A DNA stretch of 7,713 bases, from positions 1-7,713 of the forward strand of contig JADFSZ010000083.1 in assembly GCA_022560555.1 (NCBI GenBank), given 5' to 3'. The notes beneath the pieces were generated by a model that saw only the letters and a program-made list of their open reading frames with translations, had not been told where the DNA came from and searched no databases. A program made the translations under genes and the position numbers. The stretch comes from PVC group bacterium (lineage in GTDB: Bacteria; GCA-001730085; JADFSZ01). How positions within the stretch are numbered: position 1 is the first letter of the stretch; each line of letters opens with the position of its first letter. Below are positions 1 through 7,227 of the stretch, one piece after another.

Positions 1-1674
1 CTTCACAACACTGTTCCTCAAGAGTATGTTCTTCTCTTAACAAAACCAAGCGGAGAAGAAGAAACCATAACACCGGGATTGATTGAGGATGGTCCTTCAA
101 ATGCTCTGGACATTAATGAATTGATAACAGAGGCGGATCCTTTTGTTCCTTATCAAATACAAGCGAAGAGTAAGGCAAGAGCTTACCGTGACAGTGAGTA
201 TGGTGCCGTAAGAGAATTTATTGTAAGCAGTGTTGATGGGTCTGTTTTACCTGCTATTAGCAGTTATGATGTTTTTAATCCGACCGGGGATGGGACAGAT
301 TTAGGCCGTGACGGTATTATCCTTCTTGAAAATATTGTCTTATCGGGCGGGAGCATTGAGCCGGACGGCTTTTTTGTCCAAACCAGCACAACATCAGACT
401 TTTCTGAGGATACGGTTGGTTATTTTGCTCCTTTTAGAAATGAGCAAGATAATATCACGAATCTTATAGTGATTGACACGAGTGCCATGAATGAATTTAC
501 GGGTGAAGATTTATTGGAGCCCGGAGAGGCGGCCGAAATATTTATAAAAATAAGGACAGTGCGAATAGGAAGTGTCAGTGGAGATGAAAGCACGAAATCT
601 TCCGTTTTTGCAAATAATATTGTGATGTTGCCGGCATCTCATCCACCGGATGATTTCTTTTTAACACAAGTTGGAAATCAGCCTGACGTTTCAGTCAATA
701 TTATCAATGTCACAGGTCTTCACAATGCAGAGGCTCTTGAATATGCGATTGAATTAAGAAAGCCTTCAGGGGAAGTGGAAGTATTTGCTGTGAATAACAC
801 GGCGGCTGATCCGGATATTATTTCTCTATTAGGGTTAATCAGCGAGGCCGATAGTGTGATGCCCTATATGGTGAGCATGAAGAGTCGTACGAGGGGGTAC
901 CGTGATAGTGAAGTAAGCGAGAACCTTGAGTTTTTTGTAGATACTCTTTCGAGCACGTTGCCTGAGATTGCGGGCTTTGATGTTGTGAATCCTATTGGGT
1001 TCATTGATATGGATTTAGAAGAGTATGGTGACGGGATTATTCTTATTGAAAATATTACTCTCGAGCCAGGAGATACGCCCGATCTTCTCGTGGCCCTCGT
1101 GAGTACAGATTCCTCATTCAGTGGAGATGTGAACAGCTATTTTGTCACTTTGGATGATCATCAGAGCGGAGGAATCCCCATTGTCATTGATATTGATGCG
1201 GAAAACATTTTTACGGGCACGAAACTTATCGATGAAGGGGAGAAAGGGATTGGGTATATTAAAATTCGAACTGAGAGATCAGGCTTTTTGCCGGGACGAT
1301 GGAGTGATGATGCGAATAATGCGAGTCCCATTGCCTTGGTTGAAGAAAATGTGTTTAATGTTAACATGCTTTTGCCTCCCGATATTTCTTTGATTGAAAA
1401 CTTTTCTGTGCCTATCCCTTCGCTTGAAGTTACATTGATAGATCCGCCAAATCCGGAGTTTACGATTGTTCCCGAAGACTATATCGTAGAGTTTATCAGG
1501 CCGAGTGGATCTACTGATATCTTTCCCACAACATTTTCTAGCTTTGAAAGAAATGACTCGAATACTCTTACGGAGATAAGTCCGGATCCTTACACAATCA
1601 ATATAAAAAGCCTGGCAAGGGGATTTCGCGACAGCAATTTTGGTACCGGAGAAACATTCATATTCAATCCCTAA
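1..1674 (+). CDS. C-terminal portion of a large repeat protein, probably secreted or surface-located. The 5' end lies outside the window. Architecture is (a-b)(a-b)(a), built from a ~75-aa 'a' subdomain and a ~165-aa 'b' subdomain.
   Basis: Frame 1 is open from nt 1 (LHNTVPQEYVLLLTKPSGEEETITPGLIEDG...) to the TAA at 1672-1674. The translation of nt 4-78 aligns with the start of the next repeat unit (HNAEALEYAIELRKPSGEVEVFAV...), so the TTG at 79 used by the ORF track is not a real start. Internal repeats are conserved at protein level. No membrane helices are present, and the composition is acidic and Ser/Thr/Asn-rich. Confidence 0.8.
   Translation, partial: LHNTVPQEYVLLLTKPSGEEETITPGLIEDGPSNALDINELITEADPFVPYQIQAKSKARAYRDSEYGAVREFIVSSVDGSVLPAISSYDVFNPTGDGTDLGRDGIILLENIVLSGGSIEPDGFFVQTSTTSDFSEDTVGYFAPFRNEQDNITNLIVIDTSAMNEFTGEDLLEPGEAAEIFIKIRTVRIGSVSGDESTKSSVFANNIVMLPASHPPDDFFLTQVGNQPDVSVNIINVTGLHNAEALEYAIELRKPSGEVEVFAVNNTAADPDIISLLGLISEADSVMPYMVSMKSRTRGYRDSEVSENLEFFVDTLSSTLPEIAGFDVVNPIGFIDMDLEEYGDGIILIENITLEPGDTPDLLVALVSTDSSFSGDVNSYFVTLDDHQSGGIPIVIDIDAENIFTGTKLIDEGEKGIGYIKIRTERSGFLPGRWSDDANNASPIALVEENVFNVNMLLPPDISLIENFSVPIPSLEVTLIDPPNPEFTIVPEDYIVEFIRPSGSTDIFPTTFSSFERNDSNTLTEISPDPYTINIKSLARGFRDSNFGTGETFIFNP
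4..720 (+). repeat. Protein-level tandem repeat unit 1 (239 aa; subdomain a ~4-225, subdomain b ~226-720)
   Basis: HNTVPQEYVLLLTKPSGEEE...PYQIQAKSKARAYRDSEYGAVREFIV...GRDGIILLENIVL...IVIDTSAMNEFTGEDLLEPGE...IKIRTVRIG aligns motif by motif with unit 2. Roughly a third of positions are identical by eye. Confidence 0.8.
721..1446 (+). repeat. Protein-level tandem repeat unit 2 (242 aa; subdomain a 721-939, subdomain b 940-1446)
   Basis: HNAEALEYAIELRKPSGEVE...PYMVSMKSRTRGYRDSEVSENLEFFV...YGDGIILIENITL...IVIDIDAENIFTGTKLIDEGE...IKIRTERSG. The motifs occur in the same order and spacing as in unit 1, offset by 717 nt. Confidence 0.8.
1447..1671 (+). repeat. Terminal partial repeat unit 3 (subdomain a only, 75 aa) ending the protein
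   Basis: PNPEFTIVPEDYIVEFIRPSGSTD...PYTINIKSLARGFRDSNFGTGETFIF matches subdomain a of units 1 and 2 (EY..(4 residues)..KPSGE / PY.(4 residues)K(S).ARG(Y/F)RDS(6 residues)F). It is followed directly by the stop codon. Confidence 0.75.
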
Positions 1675-1685
1675 GAAGTACCGTA

Positions 1686-3461
1686 TTATTTTTGATCAGA
1701 TGAAATCTTTTCGATCTGGGTTGCTAAACCCGGTAAATTTGGATTGATCTGATAGGATTTTTTGAACCATTGCAATGCTTTTTTGTGATTCCCCGCTCGC
1801 TTTTCTATGACACCGTAATAGTAATACGGGTACGGGGACTTTGGGTCAAGGGCCTCAAAGCCTTGAAATACTTCGTAAGCAAGATCGATTTTTCCGCGCT
1901 TAATAAAAATATCTCCAAGCGCAACAGCTAATTTGTGATTTCCGGGACTTTGGAGAATTTGCTCAAGAATAATCTTTTCCGCCTCATCTAAATGCCCCGT
2001 TCTTGTGTATATATCGGCCAGCTGAATGGCCGCCCGGTCGTATTTTGGTTTTTTTTCCAGGGCTTTTCGAAAGAATATTTCCGCCTGAGGAAAATATGTG
2101 GTTTTAAGATAAATAAGCCCCATGTTAAAAAAATGATTGGACCGAATCACGGGTTCTTCCGGCATACGTGTGAAGAAACTGAGCAAGATTAAAATAGCGC
2201 CCAGGGTGCCAAGTTTGAGCCATTTACGATTTAAGCTATACGTGAGGATTCTCTCTAGCGTAAAACCGGCTGAAAGGCACAATAAACCCACCACCGGAAG
2301 CCGGAATCGGCCCAAAATGTAAAAGATAAAAATAGAAAAAAAGAGTCCAAGGAAAAAACATACAAACAAGCGATGATGAGGTGTTCTCTTAAATGAAAGA
2401 AAAAGTCCCGGAATGGCCAGTATCGCAATTACCCGAAAATCTACAAGAACCATTTTTAAAGCATTTGAAAAAGTTGCCATCAAATAAAAATTAACATTAT
2501 TTGGAATTTCGTATTCATTAAAAAAGCGATAGAGTTTTTGAGCTTGTAGAGCGATCCAATCAAGCGGATGCTGGTAGATGAGGATAAGCAAATGTTTGCC
2601 TAGTGCGATTGGATTGTCCCCGAATTGTTGAAGAAGCGCATGGGCTTGCCGGGAAATCTCCCATCCCCATCCGAGTGCGTCCGGTGTATTGCCGGAGATA
2701 AAAACAGTGGCGCCCTGAGCGCTGAAGGCGAGGGGAGAAAAGCCGAGACTGATATTTCTTGCTATAAAGGGAAGAATGGGAAGCAGAATTGAAGCCGAAA
2801 GGGCGAAAAGGGGGAAGAAGAACTTTGCGCTCTTTTCATTTTGAACATTTAAAAAATAAATCAAACTCCAAATAAGAAAAGGGACGAGAATCAGCGCGTT
2901 AGGACGTGTCATAATGTTGAGCCCGAGAACGATTCCGCTAAGGATCAAAAAAGGAACGCTTCTGGTTTCAAAATACCGGATTAAGAGATAAAATATGAGA
3001 ATGTTCCAAAAGCCAATGAGTGTTGCGCGAAGCAGAACACTTTCGAAATAGATAGCGTAATTGTACATTCCGTAGAGAAAAGCCGAAAGAAAACTAACGG
3101 AGGCCCGGAAAAACCTTAGCCCTATTAAATATATGAAGATACTCGTCATGATGCCTAGAAGTGTTTGTATAAGCCGCGCGGCACGAATGTCGGGTGAAAT
3201 GATTTTATAGACAGCCGCGAGGAAATAAGTGTAAAGAGGGGCTTGGTTGTAGGCGTGAGTCGCCATTTTCCAGTCGTTTGTTTTGACGATCGTTACGGCG
3301 TTCCGGTGAAATTTGATTTGGTCGTTTCCTTTAAGAAGAGTGTTGAACTCGATCGTATTAATCGTCTCAGTAAGAAAGAAAAATCGCGGCAAGAACGCAG
3401 CAATGAGTGTGAGGACAAAAAAGAAATGTTTATCGTGCCAATTCGGCAGGATGCGCTTCAT
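1686..3461 (-). CDS. Polytopic membrane glycosyltransferase of the GT-C fold (PMT_2/ArnT-like, GT39/GT83-type) with a C-terminal TPR domain
   Basis: 591-aa ORF starting at an ATG (rc of 3459-3461). The N-terminal ~430 aa form a series of hydrophobic helices (FFFVLTLIAAFLPRFFFL, LIQTLLGIMTSIFIYLIGLRFF, LIGFWNILIFYLLIRYF, VPFLILSGIVLGLNIM, ALILVPFLIWSLIYFL, FFPLFALSASILLPILPFIA, LFVCFFLGLFFSIFIFYILG, GTLGAILILLSFF). The first loop carries an acidic residue (GNDQIKFHRNA) and is followed by APLYTYFLAAV, the layout typical of PMT_2/ArnT-type enzymes. The C-terminus has TPR-like repeats. Confidence 0.75.
   Translation of the reverse strand: MKRILPNWHDKHFFFVLTLIAAFLPRFFFLTETINTIEFNTLLKGNDQIKFHRNAVTIVKTNDWKMATHAYNQAPLYTYFLAAVYKIISPDIRAARLIQTLLGIMTSIFIYLIGLRFFRASVSFLSAFLYGMYNYAIYFESVLLRATLIGFWNILIFYLLIRYFETRSVPFLILSGIVLGLNIMTRPNALILVPFLIWSLIYFLNVQNEKSAKFFFPLFALSASILLPILPFIARNISLGFSPLAFSAQGATVFISGNTPDALGWGWEISRQAHALLQQFGDNPIALGKHLLILIYQHPLDWIALQAQKLYRFFNEYEIPNNVNFYLMATFSNALKMVLVDFRVIAILAIPGLFLSFKRTPHHRLFVCFFLGLFFSIFIFYILGRFRLPVVGLLCLSAGFTLERILTYSLNRKWLKLGTLGAILILLSFFTRMPEEPVIRSNHFFNMGLIYLKTTYFPQAEIFFRKALEKKPKYDRAAIQLADIYTRTGHLDEAEKIILEQILQSPGNHKLAVALGDIFIKRGKIDLAYEVFQGFEALDPKSPYPYYYYGVIEKRAGNHKKALQWFKKSYQINPNLPGLATQIEKISSDQK
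1707..2129 (-). other. C-terminal TPR repeat domain (~4 TPR units) of the GT-C protein
   Basis: NMGLIYLKTTYFPQAEIFFRKALEKKPKYDRAAIQLADIYTRTGHLDEAEKIILEQILQSPGNHKLAVALGDIFIKRGKIDLAYEVFQGFEALDPKSPYPYYYYGVIEKRAGNHKKALQWFKKSYQINPN shows the 34-residue TPR periodicity (small/aromatic positions, A..(2 residues)F/Y..(2 residues)AL..(2 residues)P). Confidence 0.7.
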
Positions 3462-5475
3462 AATCTTCCGTTTTGATCGTGTGCCGCTGGGTAACGTATT
3501 TCAGAAGGATGTCTTCTTTAACATAGAGGCCAAGTCCCCGTCCGGAAATCATGTAGGCGCGACCAAAATATCCGAATTTGATTCGCGGGTGAACAATATC
3601 TTCTACGAGAAGAAGACGCTCGTAAGAACCCTCAACAAAATCGATATTATCGAACGATGTCGCGAAGATACGCCCTGCGGCAGAAAGAATGCCCGTTTCA
3701 CCTACTTGACATCCGATTTGACATCGGATCCCCTTTGAGTCAGCAAACTTTTTGATCTGAAGGGCATGGAGAAGGCCGCCGCATTTTGAGATGCGAATAT
3801 TGAACATATGGCAGCATTTTAACTGTAATAATTTGCGCGCTTCAGAAAGAGTTGTCAGTGATTCATCGACCATAATGGGGAGATGACTGTGTCTGGCGAT
3901 ATATGAGAAACCTTCGAGGTCCGTTTTGGAAAGCGGCTGTTCAAGTGCGCTGATATTTATTTTTGATGTGCTTTTGATCCAATTGTAAGCCTCGTTTCTA
4001 TTCCACGCGCAATTTGCGTCAACACGGATATTGACGCCCGGCCCGAGAATGTGGCGGATTATGGAAAGATTATTCGCATCATTTTCATATCCAACTTTGA
4101 CCTTGACCTGACGAAACCCAAACAAACGGATTTTCAATGCCGTTAAGATTACTTCAATTGTGTTCCCTGCGGAAATAACTCCGGAATAATACAGCTCGGA
4201 TATTTTGGGTTTTCCAAAGACGTCAGATATCGAACGGTTAAAGAAGATCCCGTATGCATCAAGTAGAGCGAGTTCGAGAGCCGCCCACGCGGCTCCGCGT
4301 GTCGTATCAGTTCGTTCATCCGACGGATTTATGTCTGAAATGCTTTTACAATATGCAATGACATCGGTGTAATTCTTAAAGCTTTTTCCGAGAACCCTGG
4401 GTATATAAATATTTTTGAGTTGAGCGACCGCGCTTTCTATGGTTTCGCCCGTGACGTAGGGACGGGGAAGCCCTTCTCCGTAACCAATAATTTCCCCTGA
4501 CAGAGTAATTCTCACGATGAGGCTGTTGGATTCTTCCCGGGATGCCAAAGCATGTGAGAATCGTTTTTTAAACGGAATATGTGTTTCAAAAATATCGACA
4601 GATTCCACATGCGTTGTAGGTACACATGTGCAATCAATAGGAAGGTCACGGGATACATTATGAATCCACGTTTGGATATCTTTTAAAATGGAAAACCTGT
4701 TTTTTCCAAATTCAAGACTATGTTGCTGATCGGGATAAATTTTTATGGATTTTTTGTAAGAGCCGAGTTGTTGATGAAATTTTAGTGTGCGCTTGTTATG
4801 TACAATCACGTCTTTTTCACCCAAGAGGGTGAGGATAGGAGTGCTGATCCGATGGGCCTTTCTGAGATAAACAAATTGCATTTTGAGCGATTCCCAAAAG
4901 AATTTGGCCGTGGCCGTTAAGAGCTTTTGAGGGTCTTCCTCAATATACTTTTGATAGGACTCTTCCTCTGTGAACATCTCGGATTCTAAAGGGATTCTAA
5001 TATGCTTTTTGGAATGAAAGATGAGGTAAAAAGGAAAAAGGATTTTGTCGAGCAACGGAATGGTTTTTTTTGTGACAACGCCGGGAGAGATAAGAACGAG
5101 AGCGTCCGCAAGTCTCGGATAATAAAGACTGAGAAGTAAGGCCGGTTTGGCGCCCCAGCAAAGGGCGAGGAGAAATACCCGTCTTCCGGGGTGACGATCT
5201 TTCGCAAAATTGATAACATTGACCAGGTCAATCACAAATTGCATAAAATACGAGATATCTCCGCGGCGTCCGTCGCTATGACCCGAACCGCGCCGATCAA
5301 AAGCGTAGAAATGAAAGCCGTATTTTTGAAAGAAAGCCCCTGATTCTTTGGCCCATTCGCTATGACTTTGGAGGCCATGGGAATAAATGATGATATCTCC
5401 GTCAGGATCTCCTTCCCAAAAGCGGGTAAAAAGCCTGATATTATCATAGGTTGTGATGTGTAGATGTTGTTCCAT
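3430..5475 (-). CDS. Bifunctional fusion protein: an N-terminal alpha/beta-hydrolase (lysophospholipase/monoacylglycerol-lipase/S33-like, Hydrolase_4 type) joined to a C-terminal enolase-superfamily enzyme of the muconate-lactonizing-enzyme (MLE) subgroup (dipeptide epimerase/OSBS/cycloisomerase-like)
   Basis: Uninterrupted 681-aa ORF starting at an ATG (rc of 5473-5475). The N-terminal half has the hydrolase motifs HG(L) oxyanion region (IIIYSHGLQSH), DRRGSGHSDG, the nucleophile elbow LLALCWGAKPA, the acid GEKDVIV and the His DQQHSLEF. The C-terminal half has a capping domain (GYGEGLPRPYVTGET), the KxK motif (QVKVKVG; K458/K460), metal ligands RVDAN (D486), LEQP (E512) and MVDES (D537), and the second catalytic Lys in RISKCGG (K564). 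Confidence 0.8.
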   Translation of the reverse strand: MEQHLHITTYDNIRLFTRFWEGDPDGDIIIYSHGLQSHSEWAKESGAFFQKYGFHFYAFDRRGSGHSDGRRGDISYFMQFVIDLVNVINFAKDRHPGRRVFLLALCWGAKPALLLSLYYPRLADALVLISPGVVTKKTIPLLDKILFPFYLIFHSKKHIRIPLESEMFTEEESYQKYIEEDPQKLLTATAKFFWESLKMQFVYLRKAHRISTPILTLLGEKDVIVHNKRTLKFHQQLGSYKKSIKIYPDQQHSLEFGKNRFSILKDIQTWIHNVSRDLPIDCTCVPTTHVESVDIFETHIPFKKRFSHALASREESNSLIVRITLSGEIIGYGEGLPRPYVTGETIESAVAQLKNIYIPRVLGKSFKNYTDVIAYCKSISDINPSDERTDTTRGAAWAALELALLDAYGIFFNRSISDVFGKPKISELYYSGVISAGNTIEVILTALKIRLFGFRQVKVKVGYENDANNLSIIRHILGPGVNIRVDANCAWNRNEAYNWIKSTSKINISALEQPLSKTDLEGFSYIARHSHLPIMVDESLTTLSEARKLLQLKCCHMFNIRISKCGGLLHALQIKKFADSKGIRCQIGCQVGETGILSAAGRIFATSFDNIDFVEGSYERLLLVEDIVHPRIKFGYFGRAYMISGRGLGLYVKEDILLKYVTQRHTIKTEDYEAHPAELAR
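3511..4614 (-). other. MR/MLE (enolase-superfamily, MLE subgroup) domain of the fusion (aa ~288-655)
   Basis: KxK, D, E, D and K catalytic/metal residues have spacings (26, 26, 25, 27 residues) like those of characterised MLE-subgroup enzymes. An N-terminal alpha+beta capping domain precedes the TIM-barrel-like part. Confidence 0.75.
4651..5475 (-). other. Alpha/beta-hydrolase domain of the fusion (aa ~1-275) with a predicted Cys106-Asp222-His252 triad
   Basis: The order and spacing of oxyanion HG, nucleophile elbow, lid region, acid and His match the canonical alpha/beta-hydrolase fold. The Cys106 codon is the rc of 5158-5160 (gca -> TGC). Confidence 0.7.
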
Positions 5476-5519
5476 GTGTTTTGATCAATGCGAGGATTTT
5501 GTCGGCCTGCGTTTATAAG

Positions 5520-5551
5520 TATTCGCGTAGTATATCAATAATGCGCGAATA
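5520..5551. promoter_or_regulatory. Perfect 8-bp inverted repeat TATTCGCG-N16-CGCGAATA (candidate operator)
   Basis: 5520-5527 tattcgcg and 5544-5551 cgcgaata are exact reverse complements. The element spans the -10 hexamer and spacer of the putative minus-strand promoter. Confidence 0.4.
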
Positions 5552-5556
5552 GTAAA
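5529..5556 (-). promoter_or_regulatory. Putative sigma70-type promoter of the hydrolase-MLE/GT-C operon
   Basis: The minus strand reads TTTACT (rc of 5551-5556), a 16-nt spacer, then TATACT (rc of 5529-5534). The predicted start near 5522 gives a ~47-nt leader before the ATG at 5475. Confidence 0.4.
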
Positions 5557-5605
5557 CCCTGAATCCCGCGGTACTTGGGGATGAAATGCTCCCTATTTCG
5601 TTTCA

Positions 5606-5620
5606 TGTAAACCATTTACA
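5606..5620. promoter_or_regulatory. 15-bp palindrome TGTAAA-cca-TTTACA (candidate operator) overlapping the leuA -35 hexamer
   Basis: 5606-5611 tgtaaa and 5615-5620 tttaca are exact reverse complements separated by 3 nt. The right arm is the -35 element of the putative leuA promoter. Confidence 0.35.
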
Positions 5621-5643
5621 GGAATCTCTCTTTTAGCTATAAT
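5615..5643 (+). promoter_or_regulatory. Near-consensus sigma70 promoter of leuA (TTTACA-17 nt-TATAAT)
   Basis: The -35 is TTTACA at 5615-5620, the spacer is 17 nt (5621-5637), and the -10 is TATAAT at 5638-5643. The leuA ATG at 5653 begins only 9 nt after the -10 hexamer. Confidence 0.55.
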
Positions 5644-5652
5644 AACGGGCTT

Positions 5653-7227
5653 ATGGAGAAGAAAGACCGACAACCGTTTTTTTATGATGTGACGCTCCGG
5701 GACGGCAATCAGGCCTTGCGCCGGCCGTGGAACACGGCTGAAAAAGAAGTTATATTCCGCCAACTCCTTAGGTTGGGCGTCCAGGCTGTCGAAGTTGGGT
5801 TCTCGGGGGCGAGTGATATGGATTTTGAGGCTTGTCAACACCTGGCAAAGATCGCGAAAAATGAGAATCTCAAAGATATCGAAATTTCCGGCCTGGCCAG
5901 GACCGTTGAGAGGGATATCAAAAAGGTGTATGACGCTATTCACGAGGCGCCCAAACCGCGGATTCATACGTTTATCGGGTTGAGCCCGTTTGCCATGGAG
6001 CATGTTCTTAAGCTCAAGTCCAAGGAAGTCCAGAAAAAGGCGATTGAGGCTGTCCGTTTTGCGAAATCTCTTTTGGGAAAGAAAGGGAGAGTCGAATTCA
6101 GCGCGGAACACTTTGGAGATTGTGCTGACAATTTAGACTTTGTGATTGAGACTTTTCTCGGCTGTATTGAAGCGGGCGCGAGCGTGATCAATCTTCCGAA
6201 TACAGTGGAGAGAACCCGCCCTAGTGAGTTTATCGAACTGGTTCAAAAAGCGGCGGATGCTTTGCCGAAAGACAGTGTCATGATCGCGGTCCATACGCAC
6301 AATGACTTGGGAATGGCCACAGCAACGACGGTAGAAAGCTATTTTGCCGGAGCCACTCAGCTGGAATGTTGCTTAAACGGTCTCGGTGAGCGAGCCGGCA
6401 ACACGAACCTTTTTGAAGTGGCCGTGGCTCTTCATTGCTCGGGCGTCAATGTCCCGCTCAACATGAATGAAATTTATGAAACAAGTCTTCTTATTTCTGA
6501 GATGTCCGGTGTTCCGATTTATGAGAAAGCTCCGCTAGTAGGATCTGACGCGTTGGCGCATCGATCCGGAATACATCAGGATGGTACAGCGAAAACGAAA
6601 GATATGAAGAAAGGCGCGTATCGTTCGTTTGATCCGACTTTGATTGGTCTCGAACCCGGGGAATTGATCACGTTTACAAGTCAATCCGGAAAAACGGCTA
6701 TATGTGAAATTATTCAGCAGGCCGGATGGCCGATATCGATTAAAGAAGCAGTCTATCTTCAACCGTTCATGAAAAGCCGGGCCGAAGAAGTCGGAGAGCT
6801 CAAAGAAGATGAGGTTTTTGATGTCTATTTTAAAAAACTTTTTCATGTTGATGGAAATTTTGAATTTCATGATTTTTTCGAAATTGTAAAGCAGATACCT
6901 TCCTCCAAGGAAAAAAGTCATCTTGAATTTTATCGTATTAAATATTCTTACGATAAGGAAAAGAGAAGTCAAGAAACCAAAGGAGATGGTCCGATTGATG
7001 CATGTCTGAATGCGATTCGTGAAGCTGGTTTTCAGGTAAAACTGCTTCATTATGAACAGAAGGCTGTGCAGAAGGAGCGAAAAGGTTCTGCCTCCGATGC
7101 GATGACAGTGATCAAATTGAAAAATGACAATAATGGCGAAGTCGTTATCTGCCGCGGGCTCAATCCGGATACGCGCGCGGCCAATATCGAAGCGATCTTT
7201 AACGGGCTGAATCTTTTGGGCCTCTAG
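5653..7227 (+). CDS. leuA: 2-isopropylmalate synthase (DRE-TIM/HMGL-like catalytic domain plus LeuA-dimer regulatory domain)
   Basis: 524-aa ORF. The N-terminus FYDVTLRDGNQALRRPW...EVGFSGASDMDF matches the LRDGNQAL/EVGF(P)SAS signature of the long-form LeuA family. It also has NLPNTVERTRPSEF, the metal-binding HTHNDLGMA, NGLGERAGN and AHRSGIHQDG. The C-terminal GDGPIDACLNAIRE...ASDAMTVIKL...ANIEAIFNGLN matches the leucine-binding regulatory domain. An in-frame TAA at 5608-5610 excludes an upstream start. Confidence 0.85.
   Translation: MEKKDRQPFFYDVTLRDGNQALRRPWNTAEKEVIFRQLLRLGVQAVEVGFSGASDMDFEACQHLAKIAKNENLKDIEISGLARTVERDIKKVYDAIHEAPKPRIHTFIGLSPFAMEHVLKLKSKEVQKKAIEAVRFAKSLLGKKGRVEFSAEHFGDCADNLDFVIETFLGCIEAGASVINLPNTVERTRPSEFIELVQKAADALPKDSVMIAVHTHNDLGMATATTVESYFAGATQLECCLNGLGERAGNTNLFEVAVALHCSGVNVPLNMNEIYETSLLISEMSGVPIYEKAPLVGSDALAHRSGIHQDGTAKTKDMKKGAYRSFDPTLIGLEPGELITFTSQSGKTAICEIIQQAGWPISIKEAVYLQPFMKSRAEEVGELKEDEVFDVYFKKLFHVDGNFEFHDFFEIVKQIPSSKEKSHLEFYRIKYSYDKEKRSQETKGDGPIDACLNAIREAGFQVKLLHYEQKAVQKERKGSASDAMTVIKLKNDNNGEVVICRGLNPDTRAANIEAIFNGLNLLGL

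Follow-up and report, generated by a model that had tools for sequence, protein, structure and literature searches.

A fused alpha/beta-hydrolase and enolase-superfamily enzyme whose relatives adjoin GH3-type ligase genes: a possible bifunctional tailoring enzyme for N-acyl amino acids

The first biochemical role for bacterial GH3 ligases came in 2025 and lies in ornithine-lipid synthesis (PMC12493201, J Biol Chem 2025). In Singulisphaera acidiphila, the GH3-like OlsH uses ATP to join a free fatty acid to ornithine, giving N-acyl-ornithine, and OlsI, an alpha/beta-hydrolase (ABH), O-acylates this product to ornithine lipid (PMC12493201). GH3 proteins have the adenylate-forming fold, and their bacterial homologues are widespread, the products of thousands of them being unknown according to the same authors; an enolase-superfamily enzyme is not mentioned in that work (PMC12493201). 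Here we describe a 681-amino-acid (aa) protein (MCH7505008.1) in which an ABH is fused to an enolase-superfamily enzyme of the muconate lactonizing enzyme (MLE) subgroup, and whose relatives, fused or encoded by adjacent genes, often stand next to a GH3-family acyl-acid amido synthetase. Its gene lies in the window analyzed here, an entire 7,713-bp metagenome contig that carries the NCBI label "PVC group bacterium." The fusion open reading frame (ORF) is built as follows.

3430..5475, minus strand: fusion ORF, ABH plus linker plus MLE-subgroup enolase-superfamily domain (ORF list and Pfam; ATG start, 681 aa, stop-free)
4651..5475, minus strand: ABH half, aa 1-275 (Pfam Hydrolase_4; capped monoglyceride-lipase-like fold)
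4609..4650, minus strand: linker RDLPIDCTCVPTTH, aa 276-289 (from the sequence; pLDDT <50 at aa 281-284)
4213..4608, minus strand: MLE capping (N-terminal) domain, aa 290-421 (weak MR_MLE_N match; beta-meander plus helices in the model; full-length alignment to 2p88)
3433..4212, minus strand: MLE barrel domain, aa 422-681 (MR_MLE_C, E 2e-38; Foldseek TMt 0.93 to 2p88)

A first-pass annotation of the window had described a single stop-free frame joining the two domains through a Cys/Thr/Pro linker, with no in-frame Met near the junction, and the ORF list, the Pfam matches on one chain, and the sequence itself agree with each of these points. Two of the three domains that it expected are found on the chain, namely, Hydrolase_4 (PF12146), which spans aa 28-255 with 143.7 bits (cut-off 27, E 7e-42), and MR_MLE_C, which spans aa 453-655 (E 2e-38), whereas the third, MR_MLE_N at aa 297-421, is weak and with 21.5 bits falls slightly below its 22-bit cut-off. 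The full-length AlphaFold (AF2) model has a pLDDT of 86.7 and a pTM of 0.71, and values of pLDDT <50 are confined to aa 281-284, aa 384-391, and the C terminus. The 681-aa frame with its open junction is kept in two further assemblies (P0121 and P0122, the other members of the 90%-identity cluster of the query), each with its own substitutions, and the order of a divergent leuA2, the fusion gene, and a gene for a GT-C-type membrane glycosyltransferase with TPR repeats is identical across all contigs of the query lineage. Because three assemblies share the open frame and all contigs of the lineage share the gene order, the fusion is genuine in the query lineage and is not an assembly artifact. 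The junction at aa ~275-290, where a stop or frameshift in orthologues had been named as the sign of two ordinary genes, is open in all three assemblies.

The copy of the fusion gene on a fourth contig of this lineage (L090) is broken near aa 157, ahead of the hydrolase Asp and His, and again near aa 300; at 2687-4735 of that contig it lies in three pieces of 178, 86, and 409 aa. Because these breaks destroy the hydrolase and miss the domain boundary, they look like indel errors or a pseudogene and not like a two-gene arrangement. The GT-C gene of another contig of the lineage (L091, 2821-4596) is in two pieces of 76 and 487 aa, and the broken loci of both contigs suggest assembly indel errors or ongoing decay. 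The fusion protein matches no defense-system family in PADLOC.

The residues that define the MLE half were located by alignment to the structure 2p88, the N-succinyl-Arg/Lys racemase BC0371 of Bacillus cereus, and to the dipeptide epimerase YkfB (1jpm), and their conservation was read from an alignment of 25 full-length fused homologues.

4096..4104, minus strand: K458-V-K460 (KxK; K460 is the first general base), invariant; aligned to FKMKVG of 2p88 and LKIKVG of YkfB
4018..4020, minus strand: D486, metal ligand 1, invariant; aligned to RVDVN of 2p88
3940..3942, minus strand: E512, metal ligand 2, in an invariant EQP; aligned to IEQP of 2p88
3865..3867, minus strand: D537, metal ligand 3, in an invariant DES; aligned to IDEG of 2p88
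3784..3786, minus strand: K564, second general base (S-K-C-G-G), invariant; aligned to MKCGG of 2p88 and MKAGG of YkfB
3625..3633, minus strand: E615-G-S617, at the position of the dipeptide-epimerase D-x-D (alignment)

All six catalytic residues (K458, K460, D486, E512, D537, and K564) are present, as the first reading of the sequence had it, and are invariant in the 25 homologues, and the earlier claim that both halves hold full catalytic sets is likewise upheld by the conserved residues of the alignment. In dipeptide epimerases, the D-x-D motif, located after strand 8, binds the N-terminal ammonium group of the dipeptide. The corresponding segment of the query, IDFVEGSY at aa 611-618, aligns with F-D-F-D (D321-F-D323) of YkfB and with V-E-L-T of 2p88; E615 is invariant and S617 is at least 90% conserved, and the absence of D-x-D that had been proposed from this segment extends, as E-x-S, to the whole family. 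E615 may be equivalent to the conserved Glu of muconate lactonizing enzyme.

Sequence and structure searches gave the same nearest relative. The best PDB sequence match of the MLE half is 2p88 (E 8e-37), which is also the best Foldseek match of the full-length model (TM 0.93 over 383 columns, root mean square deviation 2.1 Å); the N-acylamino acid racemases 1xpy, 2zc8, and 2ggg follow in the fold search, with cycloisomerases and dipeptide epimerases close behind. The capping domain and the barrel are complete in both the model and the match. The MLE subgroup has a capping domain and a (beta/alpha)7-beta barrel, in which KxK is on strand 2, the D/E/D metal ligands are on strands 3-5, and the second Lys is on strand 6. 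The KxK, D/E/D, and Lys set, the fold (TMt 0.93), and the MR_MLE_C match (E 2e-38) together place this half in the subgroup. Within the subgroup, it appears closest to the N-succinyl and N-acyl amino acid racemases, with which it shares the proximity to 2p88 in sequence and structure, the two catalytic lysines, and the lack of a D-x-D. None of the NCBIfam equivalog models reaches its cut-off with the MLE half. The best match is the muconate cycloisomerase model TIGR02534 (135.4 bits against 334.95), and the scores are 104.9 against 200.65 (TIGR01928) and 56.9 against 130.55 (TIGR01927) for the OSBS models, the remaining ones being lower, 111.8 against 500 (NF041118) and 70.6 against 343 (NF011708) for the dipeptide (AE) epimerase models, and 101 against 400 for the DgcA model NF042940.

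The hydrolase half departs from its nearest relatives at the nucleophile. Its catalytic elements are the following.

5152..5166, minus strand: nucleophile elbow A104-L-C106-W-G108, Cys replacing the usual Ser (alignment)
4810..4812, minus strand: Asp222, triad acid, invariant in the 25-homologue alignment; D in 74 of 77 related sequences
4720..4722, minus strand: His252, triad base, invariant in the 25-homologue alignment; H in 75 of 77; read from the codon

A Ser in G-x-S-x-G is usual for the Hydrolase_4/monoglyceride lipase (MGL) type, whereas the elbow of the query reads A-L-C-W-G. Cys occupies this column in 24 of the 25 fused homologues, in 26 of 77 related hydrolases (76 loci plus the query; Ser in the other 51), and in 56, the query included, of 149 aligned sequences (the query plus 148 representatives at 50% identity), 92 of which have Ser. 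Because the column holds either Cys or Ser across relatives, C106 would mark the catalytic nucleophile, switching between the two residues, and the predicted triad of the query is Cys106-Asp222-His252, not Ser-Asp-His; H33-G34 (oxyanion), D222, and H252 are invariant in the 25 fused homologues. The hydrolase had been described as intact, which is right for the domain, but its Cys nucleophile had gone unnoticed. Other fusions also occur in this Cys/Ser Hydrolase_4 clade, namely, FAA_hydrolase-ABH, NAD-epimerase-ABH, and ABH-DUF362-4Fe4S (P0261, P0346, and P0389), and the NAD-epimerase-ABH fusion mirrors an extended short-chain dehydrogenase/reductase (SDR) that neighbors the module described below.

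The modeled fold of this half is lipase-like. A PDB sequence search finds MGL (E 1.6e-15), and the AF2 model of the ABH half by itself (pLDDT 94, pTM 0.91) has Rv0183 of Mycobacterium tuberculosis and human MGL as its top Foldseek matches (TM 0.86-0.89). There is no dienelactone hydrolase (DLH) among its top 50 Foldseek matches, and MenH and prolyl aminopeptidase are not near the top of that list. A partial Pfam match to DLH (PF01738) at aa 186-254 reaches 27 bits beneath the 144-bit Hydrolase_4 match and does not amount to a whole-domain match at the family level.

The fusion is one of several arrangements of the same two domains. At least 55 clusters of full-length fused homologues, 32-38% identical to the query, came up in a protein search, as well as standalone MLE proteins with 40-47% identity. 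The fused proteins occur in Actinomycetota, Chloroflexota, and other phyla, the few with an organism name belonging to Acidimicrobiia, Gaiellaceae, and Thermomicrobiales. In GTDB species genomes, 80 loci were located by a scan, and the arrangements were assigned by tblastn with each half and by translation across every junction. Ten distinct loci have the fused gene, 16 have an ABH gene that ends in a stop at the junction and is followed by a separate MLE gene, ~46 have the reverse order of MLE and then ABH (mainly Planctomycetota, for example, Singulisphaera and Tautonia), and ~10 have MLE alone, some of these being cut by the contig end. The closest relatives with separate genes are two Omnitrophota metagenome-assembled genomes (L017 and L020) with the order ABH-MLE-GH3 and a stop between ABH and MLE. 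Some loci are a single stop codon away from the fused state (...PPR-stop-WNMGKAM... in L012 and ...GGGP-stop-MPTV... in L018), and the stop and new start of relatives fall exactly at the position of the query linker.

In a neighbor-joining tree of MLE domains, the fused state is scattered, and the query groups with a standalone MLE of Omnitrophota (L004). This scatter suggests that the link between ABH and MLE is old and that the fusion was formed or broken several times. Fusion and fission recur at a single stop codon, and both gene orders occur, which argues for a shared pathway of the two halves. The supposition that the fusion marks a functional link thus gains support, since the same domains are fused or adjacent, in either order, in at least seven phyla. 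Proteins of this architecture are common in databases, where their annotation is inconsistent; they are uncharacterized, and no characterized family has the architecture. The same MLE clade contains another abundant fusion, in which a heme-oxygenase-like domain (PF14518, PqqC/CADD-type) is joined to MLE in proteins of 619-623 aa (P0069-P0120); its members with a source name are labeled Candidatus Binatia.

The conserved neighbor of these genes is a GH3-family acyl-acid amido synthetase, found within 1.5 kb of the MLE gene in 31 of 83 distinct loci classified. Some trends are apparent. First, GH3 lies directly after the fusion gene in all 10 distinct fused loci. Second, outside the planctomycete clade with the order MLE and then ABH, it is within this distance of MLE in all but 4 of 35 loci. 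Third, GH3 also adjoins MLE genes of other architectures. For instance, the closest standalone MLE (P0058, 46% identity) lies in the order NAD-epimerase, nitroreductase, MLE, GH3, GT2, and the PF14518-MLE genes (L095, 7001-8866; L096, 5709-7574) have genes for GH3 and a radical-SAM/BATS protein after them and a gene for a 1,131-aa Aas-like MFS-PlsC-AMP-binding protein before them. Because both the standalone MLE and the PF14518-MLE fusion also adjoin GH3, MLE and GH3 are the core pair.

The other neighbors of the module fall largely into lipid and signaling families. In five contigs with fused homologues, the fusion gene is followed by GH3 and then by a ~150-aa protein that binds cyclic nucleotide monophosphates (cNMP) in 5 of 5, and a patatin-cNMP protein lies upstream in 2 of 5. 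Pfam families were tallied for 150 ORFs near 26 GH3-linked loci, and the 25 commonest were listed; there were 15 extended-SDR (Epimerase/3Beta_HSD/NAD_binding_4), 13 cNMP_binding, 4 patatin, 4 UbiE-type methyltransferase, 3 MMPL, and 2 ketoacyl synthase (KAS) matches. Recurrent lipid and signaling neighbors are patatin-cNMP, MMPL, KAS, PlsC acyltransferase, fatty-acid desaturase, Mpo1-like, UbiE-type methyltransferase, and NAD_binding_4-type SDR proteins.

Several features of these neighborhoods are confined to certain groups. The ~150-aa cNMP-binding protein overlaps the 3' end of GH3 in most Actinomycetota and Chloroflexota loci (L007, 11820-12278; L001, 13718-14176; L009, 11758-12207; and others), where the patatin-cNMP protein is often upstream. 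The cNMP domain is similar to the one in Pycsar effectors (PADLOC), and there is no conserved cyclase or defense context. A ~480-aa His-rich NicO/RcnA-like membrane protein lies directly upstream of MLE in Gemmataceae and Isosphaeraceae (L040, 4461-5903; L029, 3346-4920; and 17 more planctomycete loci) and was treated as clade-specific. In Singulisphaera L066, the MLE and ABH genes, in that order, are flanked by a divergent M81/MlrC-type metallopeptidase (4384-5964, minus strand) and a GT4 glycosyltransferase (8290-9540, plus strand).

Our preferred reading, which we hold tentatively and at somewhat less than even chances, is that GH3 ligases make N-acyl amino acids (lipoamino acids or precursors of aminolipids) and that the protein, as a bifunctional enzyme, tailors them. 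Starting from the architecture, the intact catalytic sets, the nearest structural relatives, and the MLE/ABH/GH3 linkage found above, we infer a substrate class, a racemase chemistry, an order of steps, and a hydrolase direction as follows. A GH3-type ATP-dependent ligase would attach an amino acid, through its alpha-amine, to a free carboxylic (fatty) acid. The MLE half would bind the free alpha-carboxylate of the resulting N-acyl amino acid on Mg2+ via D486, E512, and D537, and K460 and K564, on opposite faces, would carry out a 1,1-proton transfer by which the alpha-carbon is racemized or epimerized, like in the N-succinyl/N-acyl amino acid racemases. The ABH half would form an acyl-thioester intermediate through Cys106-Asp222-His252 and then transfer the acyl group to, or remove it from, the same lipid; this step could be an O-acylation like that by OlsI or the release of the free fatty acid needed by the GH3 ligase. 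In the query lineage, the enzyme may be translationally coupled to the GT-C, and its product may be passed to, or used with, a membrane glycosylation step. N-acyl amino acids are the proposed substrates because GH3 products keep a free alpha-carboxylate, the type of substrate used by the nearest MLE racemases. A tailoring enzyme is proposed because the MLE machinery is intact, the ABH half is lipase-like with an acyl-enzyme nucleophile, and the neighbors point to the supply and export of lipids and to control by cyclic nucleotides.

Several points weigh against this interpretation. First, the window itself is without a GH3 or cNMP gene, and the sister of the query MLE on the neighbor-joining tree (Omnitrophota L004) is also without an adjacent GH3. 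Because both the contig and the nearest MLE on the tree lack this neighbor, the query lineage may have diverged in function, perhaps using the overlapping GT-C. Second, the large planctomycete clade with MLE followed by ABH has no adjacent GH3. Third, the ABH half has no homology to OlsI past the fold (E = 3), and the GH3 of the module is just 26% identical to an OlsH orthologue. Fourth, N-acyl-amino-acid racemases, dipeptide epimerases, and cycloisomerases are separated by a small margin in the sequence and fold searches, and the failure of every NCBIfam equivalog model to reach its cut-off with the MLE half counts here too. Finally, we know of no described natural lipid with an N-acyl-D-amino acid of this kind.

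A broader proposal, which we regard as doubtful, is that ABH, MLE, and GH3 form the module of a widespread undescribed pathway to D-configured lipoamino acids or aminolipids, possibly under cyclic-nucleotide control, and that the query protein is a variant feeding its lipid to the GT-C. The module is found in Actinomycetota, Chloroflexota, Omnitrophota, Planctomycetota, Verrucomicrobiota, Melainabacteria, and Desulfobacterota, and the small cNMP-binding protein, the patatin-cNMP lipase, and an extended SDR are its frequent extras. If true, such a D-lipid pathway would hold the first role for an enolase-superfamily racemase in the biosynthesis of membrane lipids or lipid signals.

The members of a large GH3 clade consistently occur with an enolase-superfamily enzyme that resembles racemases and with a Cys/Ser lipase-like hydrolase, the latter two being repeatedly fused, and N-acyl amino acids become the predicted substrate class for an unassigned MLE-subgroup family. 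The linkage also hints that lipoamino acids of inverted configuration may occur in several phyla that have been little studied. The labels "muconate cycloisomerase," "L-Ala-D/L-Glu epimerase," and "alpha/beta fold hydrolase" that these proteins now carry are probably incorrect or say little.

The alternative that survives best, improbable as we take it to be, is a cycle between L- and D-amino acids, in which the ligase would N-acylate one enantiomer, the MLE half would racemize it, and the Cys-hydrolase would deacylate stereoselectively to yield a free D- (or L-) amino acid. The cycle shares with the tailoring enzyme both the GH3 linkage and the racemase-like MLE half, the fusion would unite its last two, strictly consecutive steps, and an irreversible D-to-L pathway with N-succinylamino acid racemase in Geobacillus provides a precedent. 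However, the hydrolase half resembles the ester-cleaving MGL and not an amidase, the aminoacylases known from such cycles are metallo-enzymes, and the neighbors (patatin, MMPL, KAS, and PlsC) are oriented toward lipids. Futile acylation would also cost ATP.

The first-pass annotation had offered three other pairings. The one that fares best, which we judge quite unlikely, is the recycling of cell-wall peptides by a dipeptide (L-Ala-D/L-Glu-type) epimerase together with an S33-type peptidase/esterase. Dipeptide epimerases (1jpm, 3jva, and 3r0k) are among the best PDB matches, several databases label the homologues as L-Ala-D/L-Glu epimerase, and Pfam calls Hydrolase_4 "serine aminopeptidase S33." Yet the D-x-D on which a dipeptide epimerase would rely is replaced by an invariant E-x-S family-wide, the AE-epimerase models stop at 112 against 500 and 71 against 343 bits, the ABH model matches lipases and not prolyl aminopeptidases, and mur, mpl, ldc, and peptide-transport genes were not seen in the neighborhoods examined.

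Very unlikely in our view is a lactone pathway, in which a cycloisomerase would form a (di)enelactone and a Cys-dependent lactone hydrolase would open it, as in the ortho-cleavage of catechol or chlorocatechol. DLH is an ABH with a Cys-His-Asp triad, so the Cys-Asp-His triad of the query fits its chemistry; the partial DLH match (aa 186-254, 27 bits) and the muconate cycloisomerase subfamily as the best NCBIfam match point the same way. However, the nucleophile is freely Cys or Ser in the family, and the Hydrolase_4 domain is MGL-like in its fold match, with no DLH in the top 50. The cycloisomerase model reaches 135 bits against 335, no dioxygenase, cat, clc, or pca genes are nearby (cat and clc being absent from the ~90 loci examined), and the conserved partner is an amide-forming ligase.

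Still less probable is a menaquinone-type module of a MenH-like SHCHC synthase and MenC (OSBS), with GH3 standing in for MenE. MenH, MenC, and MenE act one after another, plant PHYLLO unites MenC and MenH on one chain, and the OSBS models give moderate matches. The adenylate-forming fold of GH3 proteins (PMC12493201) would also suit the role of MenE. Nevertheless, the OSBS scores (105 against 201, 57 against 131, and lower for the others) are far below the cut-offs, structures of the NSAR/OSBS type rank under 2p88, and the ABH half matches lipases. The patatin-cNMP, heme-oxygenase-like, and Aas-like partners do not fit quinone synthesis, the recurrent neighbors being related to lipids and signaling, and families of the isochorismate or menaquinone type are absent from the 25 commonest Pfam families of the tally, which included no targeted search for MenD, MenF, or MenB. 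The three pairings are therefore not supported, each failing a defining feature that was tested.

Least likely of all is that an indel error in the metagenome assembly merged two adjacent genes: the nearest two-gene relatives (Omnitrophota L017 and L020) do have a stop between the genes and L090 of the same lineage has a broken gene, but the 681-aa frame stands in three assemblies with different substitutions, the L090 breaks (~aa 157 and ~aa 300) destroy the hydrolase without a clean domain boundary, and genuine fusions are common elsewhere.

The rest of the window holds the following genes.

1686..3461, minus strand: PMT_2-type GT-C membrane glycosyltransferase with C-terminal TPR repeats (Pfam PMT_2 and TPR)
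5653-7227, plus strand: LeuA2-type 2-isopropylmalate synthase (NCBIfam NF042434, 559 bits against a cut-off of 500); divergent, upstream of the fusion
1-1674, plus strand: 531-aa ORF from base 79, its frame open back to base 1

The GT-C gene is downstream of the fusion ORF and overlaps it by 32 nt, and this order is repeated in L090 and L091. It had been taken as the partner gene of the fusion. However, no GT-C homologue was found by tblastn beside any of ~90 related loci; the partnership is restricted to the species-level lineage of the query, and the conserved partner elsewhere is GH3. The GT-C/TPR gene was therefore rejected as a conserved clue. Of the two linkages looked for in orthologue neighborhoods, the ABH/MLE fusion recurs, whereas the GT-C linkage is found in the query lineage only. 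Other glycosyltransferase families adjoin the module in two lineages (GT4 in Singulisphaera L066 and GT2 in L097), which with the GT-C of the window makes three families in three lineages.

The LeuA2 model is of the Leptospira type, though the contig is labeled PVC group. Positions 5615-5643 contain a candidate promoter, TTTACA-17-TATAAT, with 11 of 12 matches; in the promoter and terminator scan of the window, counts were not above those of shuffled sequence. The window contains no Rfam family and no tRNA. The 531-aa ORF probably encodes the C-terminal portion of a longer protein whose gene runs off the contig, and it has no Pfam, NCBIfam, or PADLOC match. By eye, it shows three ~240-aa units, each closing with a PY.I..KS.ARGYRDSE-like motif; a BLAST self-comparison finds none.

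The module was compared with described systems, among them the ornithine-lipid (Ols) pathway. A literature search for an ABH-MLE fusion, or for GH3 with an enolase-superfamily enzyme, found nothing relevant, "GH3" mostly returning glycoside hydrolase family 3. To obtain an OlsI query, the N terminus was back-translated from the cloning primer of Sinac_1601 into a degenerate pattern, with which metagenomes were scanned, and an olsI-olsG-olsH-type operon was recovered (L094). Its OlsI orthologue has a Ser nucleophile in G-S-S-L-G-G. The hydrolase half was rejected as an OlsI, since OlsI is a Ser enzyme that has the fold alone in common with it (BLASTP against this orthologue, E = 3); the ABH partner of MLE in planctomycetes matches the orthologue only around the nucleophile elbow. 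The GH3 near the MLE-ABH pair of Tautonia was likewise rejected as OlsH; its Singulisphaera orthologues have 568 aa and a C terminus that differs from the primer-derived OlsH, which makes them paralogues.

What the two systems have in common is their logic: in one operon, a GH3 ligase makes an N-acyl amino acid, and an enzyme of the ABH fold does the next acyl step. Methyltransferases recur near the module, a further likeness to the Ols operon. Unlike the module, the Ols operon lacks an MLE enzyme. A GH3 ligase gene in the same operon is seen in relatives of the query and not in the window. Because OlsI is unrelated to the hydrolase half beyond the fold and the GH3 is so distant from OlsH, the module is best described, as far as sequence comparison can tell, as a parallel to the Ols pathway and not a copy of it.

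Among single enzymes, 2p88 shares with the MLE half the KxK, D, E, D, and K set and the V-E-x-[ST] segment, and it acts on N-acylated amino acids whose alpha-carboxylate is free, the type of product that a GH3 ligase makes. However, 2p88 and the N-acylamino acid racemases (1xpy, 2zc8, and 1sja) are just ~26-30% identical to it, are single-domain proteins, and have no GH3 or ABH linkage. YkfB and the other dipeptide epimerases share the MLE subgroup, similar scores, and the two-lysine racemase machinery but have D-x-D in place of E-x-S, and their equivalog models fail on the query. The monoglyceride lipases (Rv0183, PDB 6eic; human MGL, 3jw8) share the Hydrolase_4 family and the capped alpha/beta fold with the hydrolase half and differ by the Ser in G-x-S-x-G, by an identity of 19-24%, and by the lack of an MLE fusion. 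DLH has in common with it the Cys nucleophile of an ABH triad and the weak partial Pfam match, but it belongs to another family, and the query clade interchanges Cys and Ser. Plant PHYLLO (MenF-MenD-MenC-MenH), which we take to be the other fusion of an MLE-subgroup enzyme with an ABH, likewise carries both on one chain. Its domain order and families are different, the OSBS models fail on the query, and a men context was not seen around the query family, for which no targeted search was made. The query protein and its proposed pathway thus belong with known kinds of component, an MLE racemase-like enzyme, a lipase-like hydrolase, and GH3-dependent lipoamino-acid synthesis, in a family that is itself uncharacterized.

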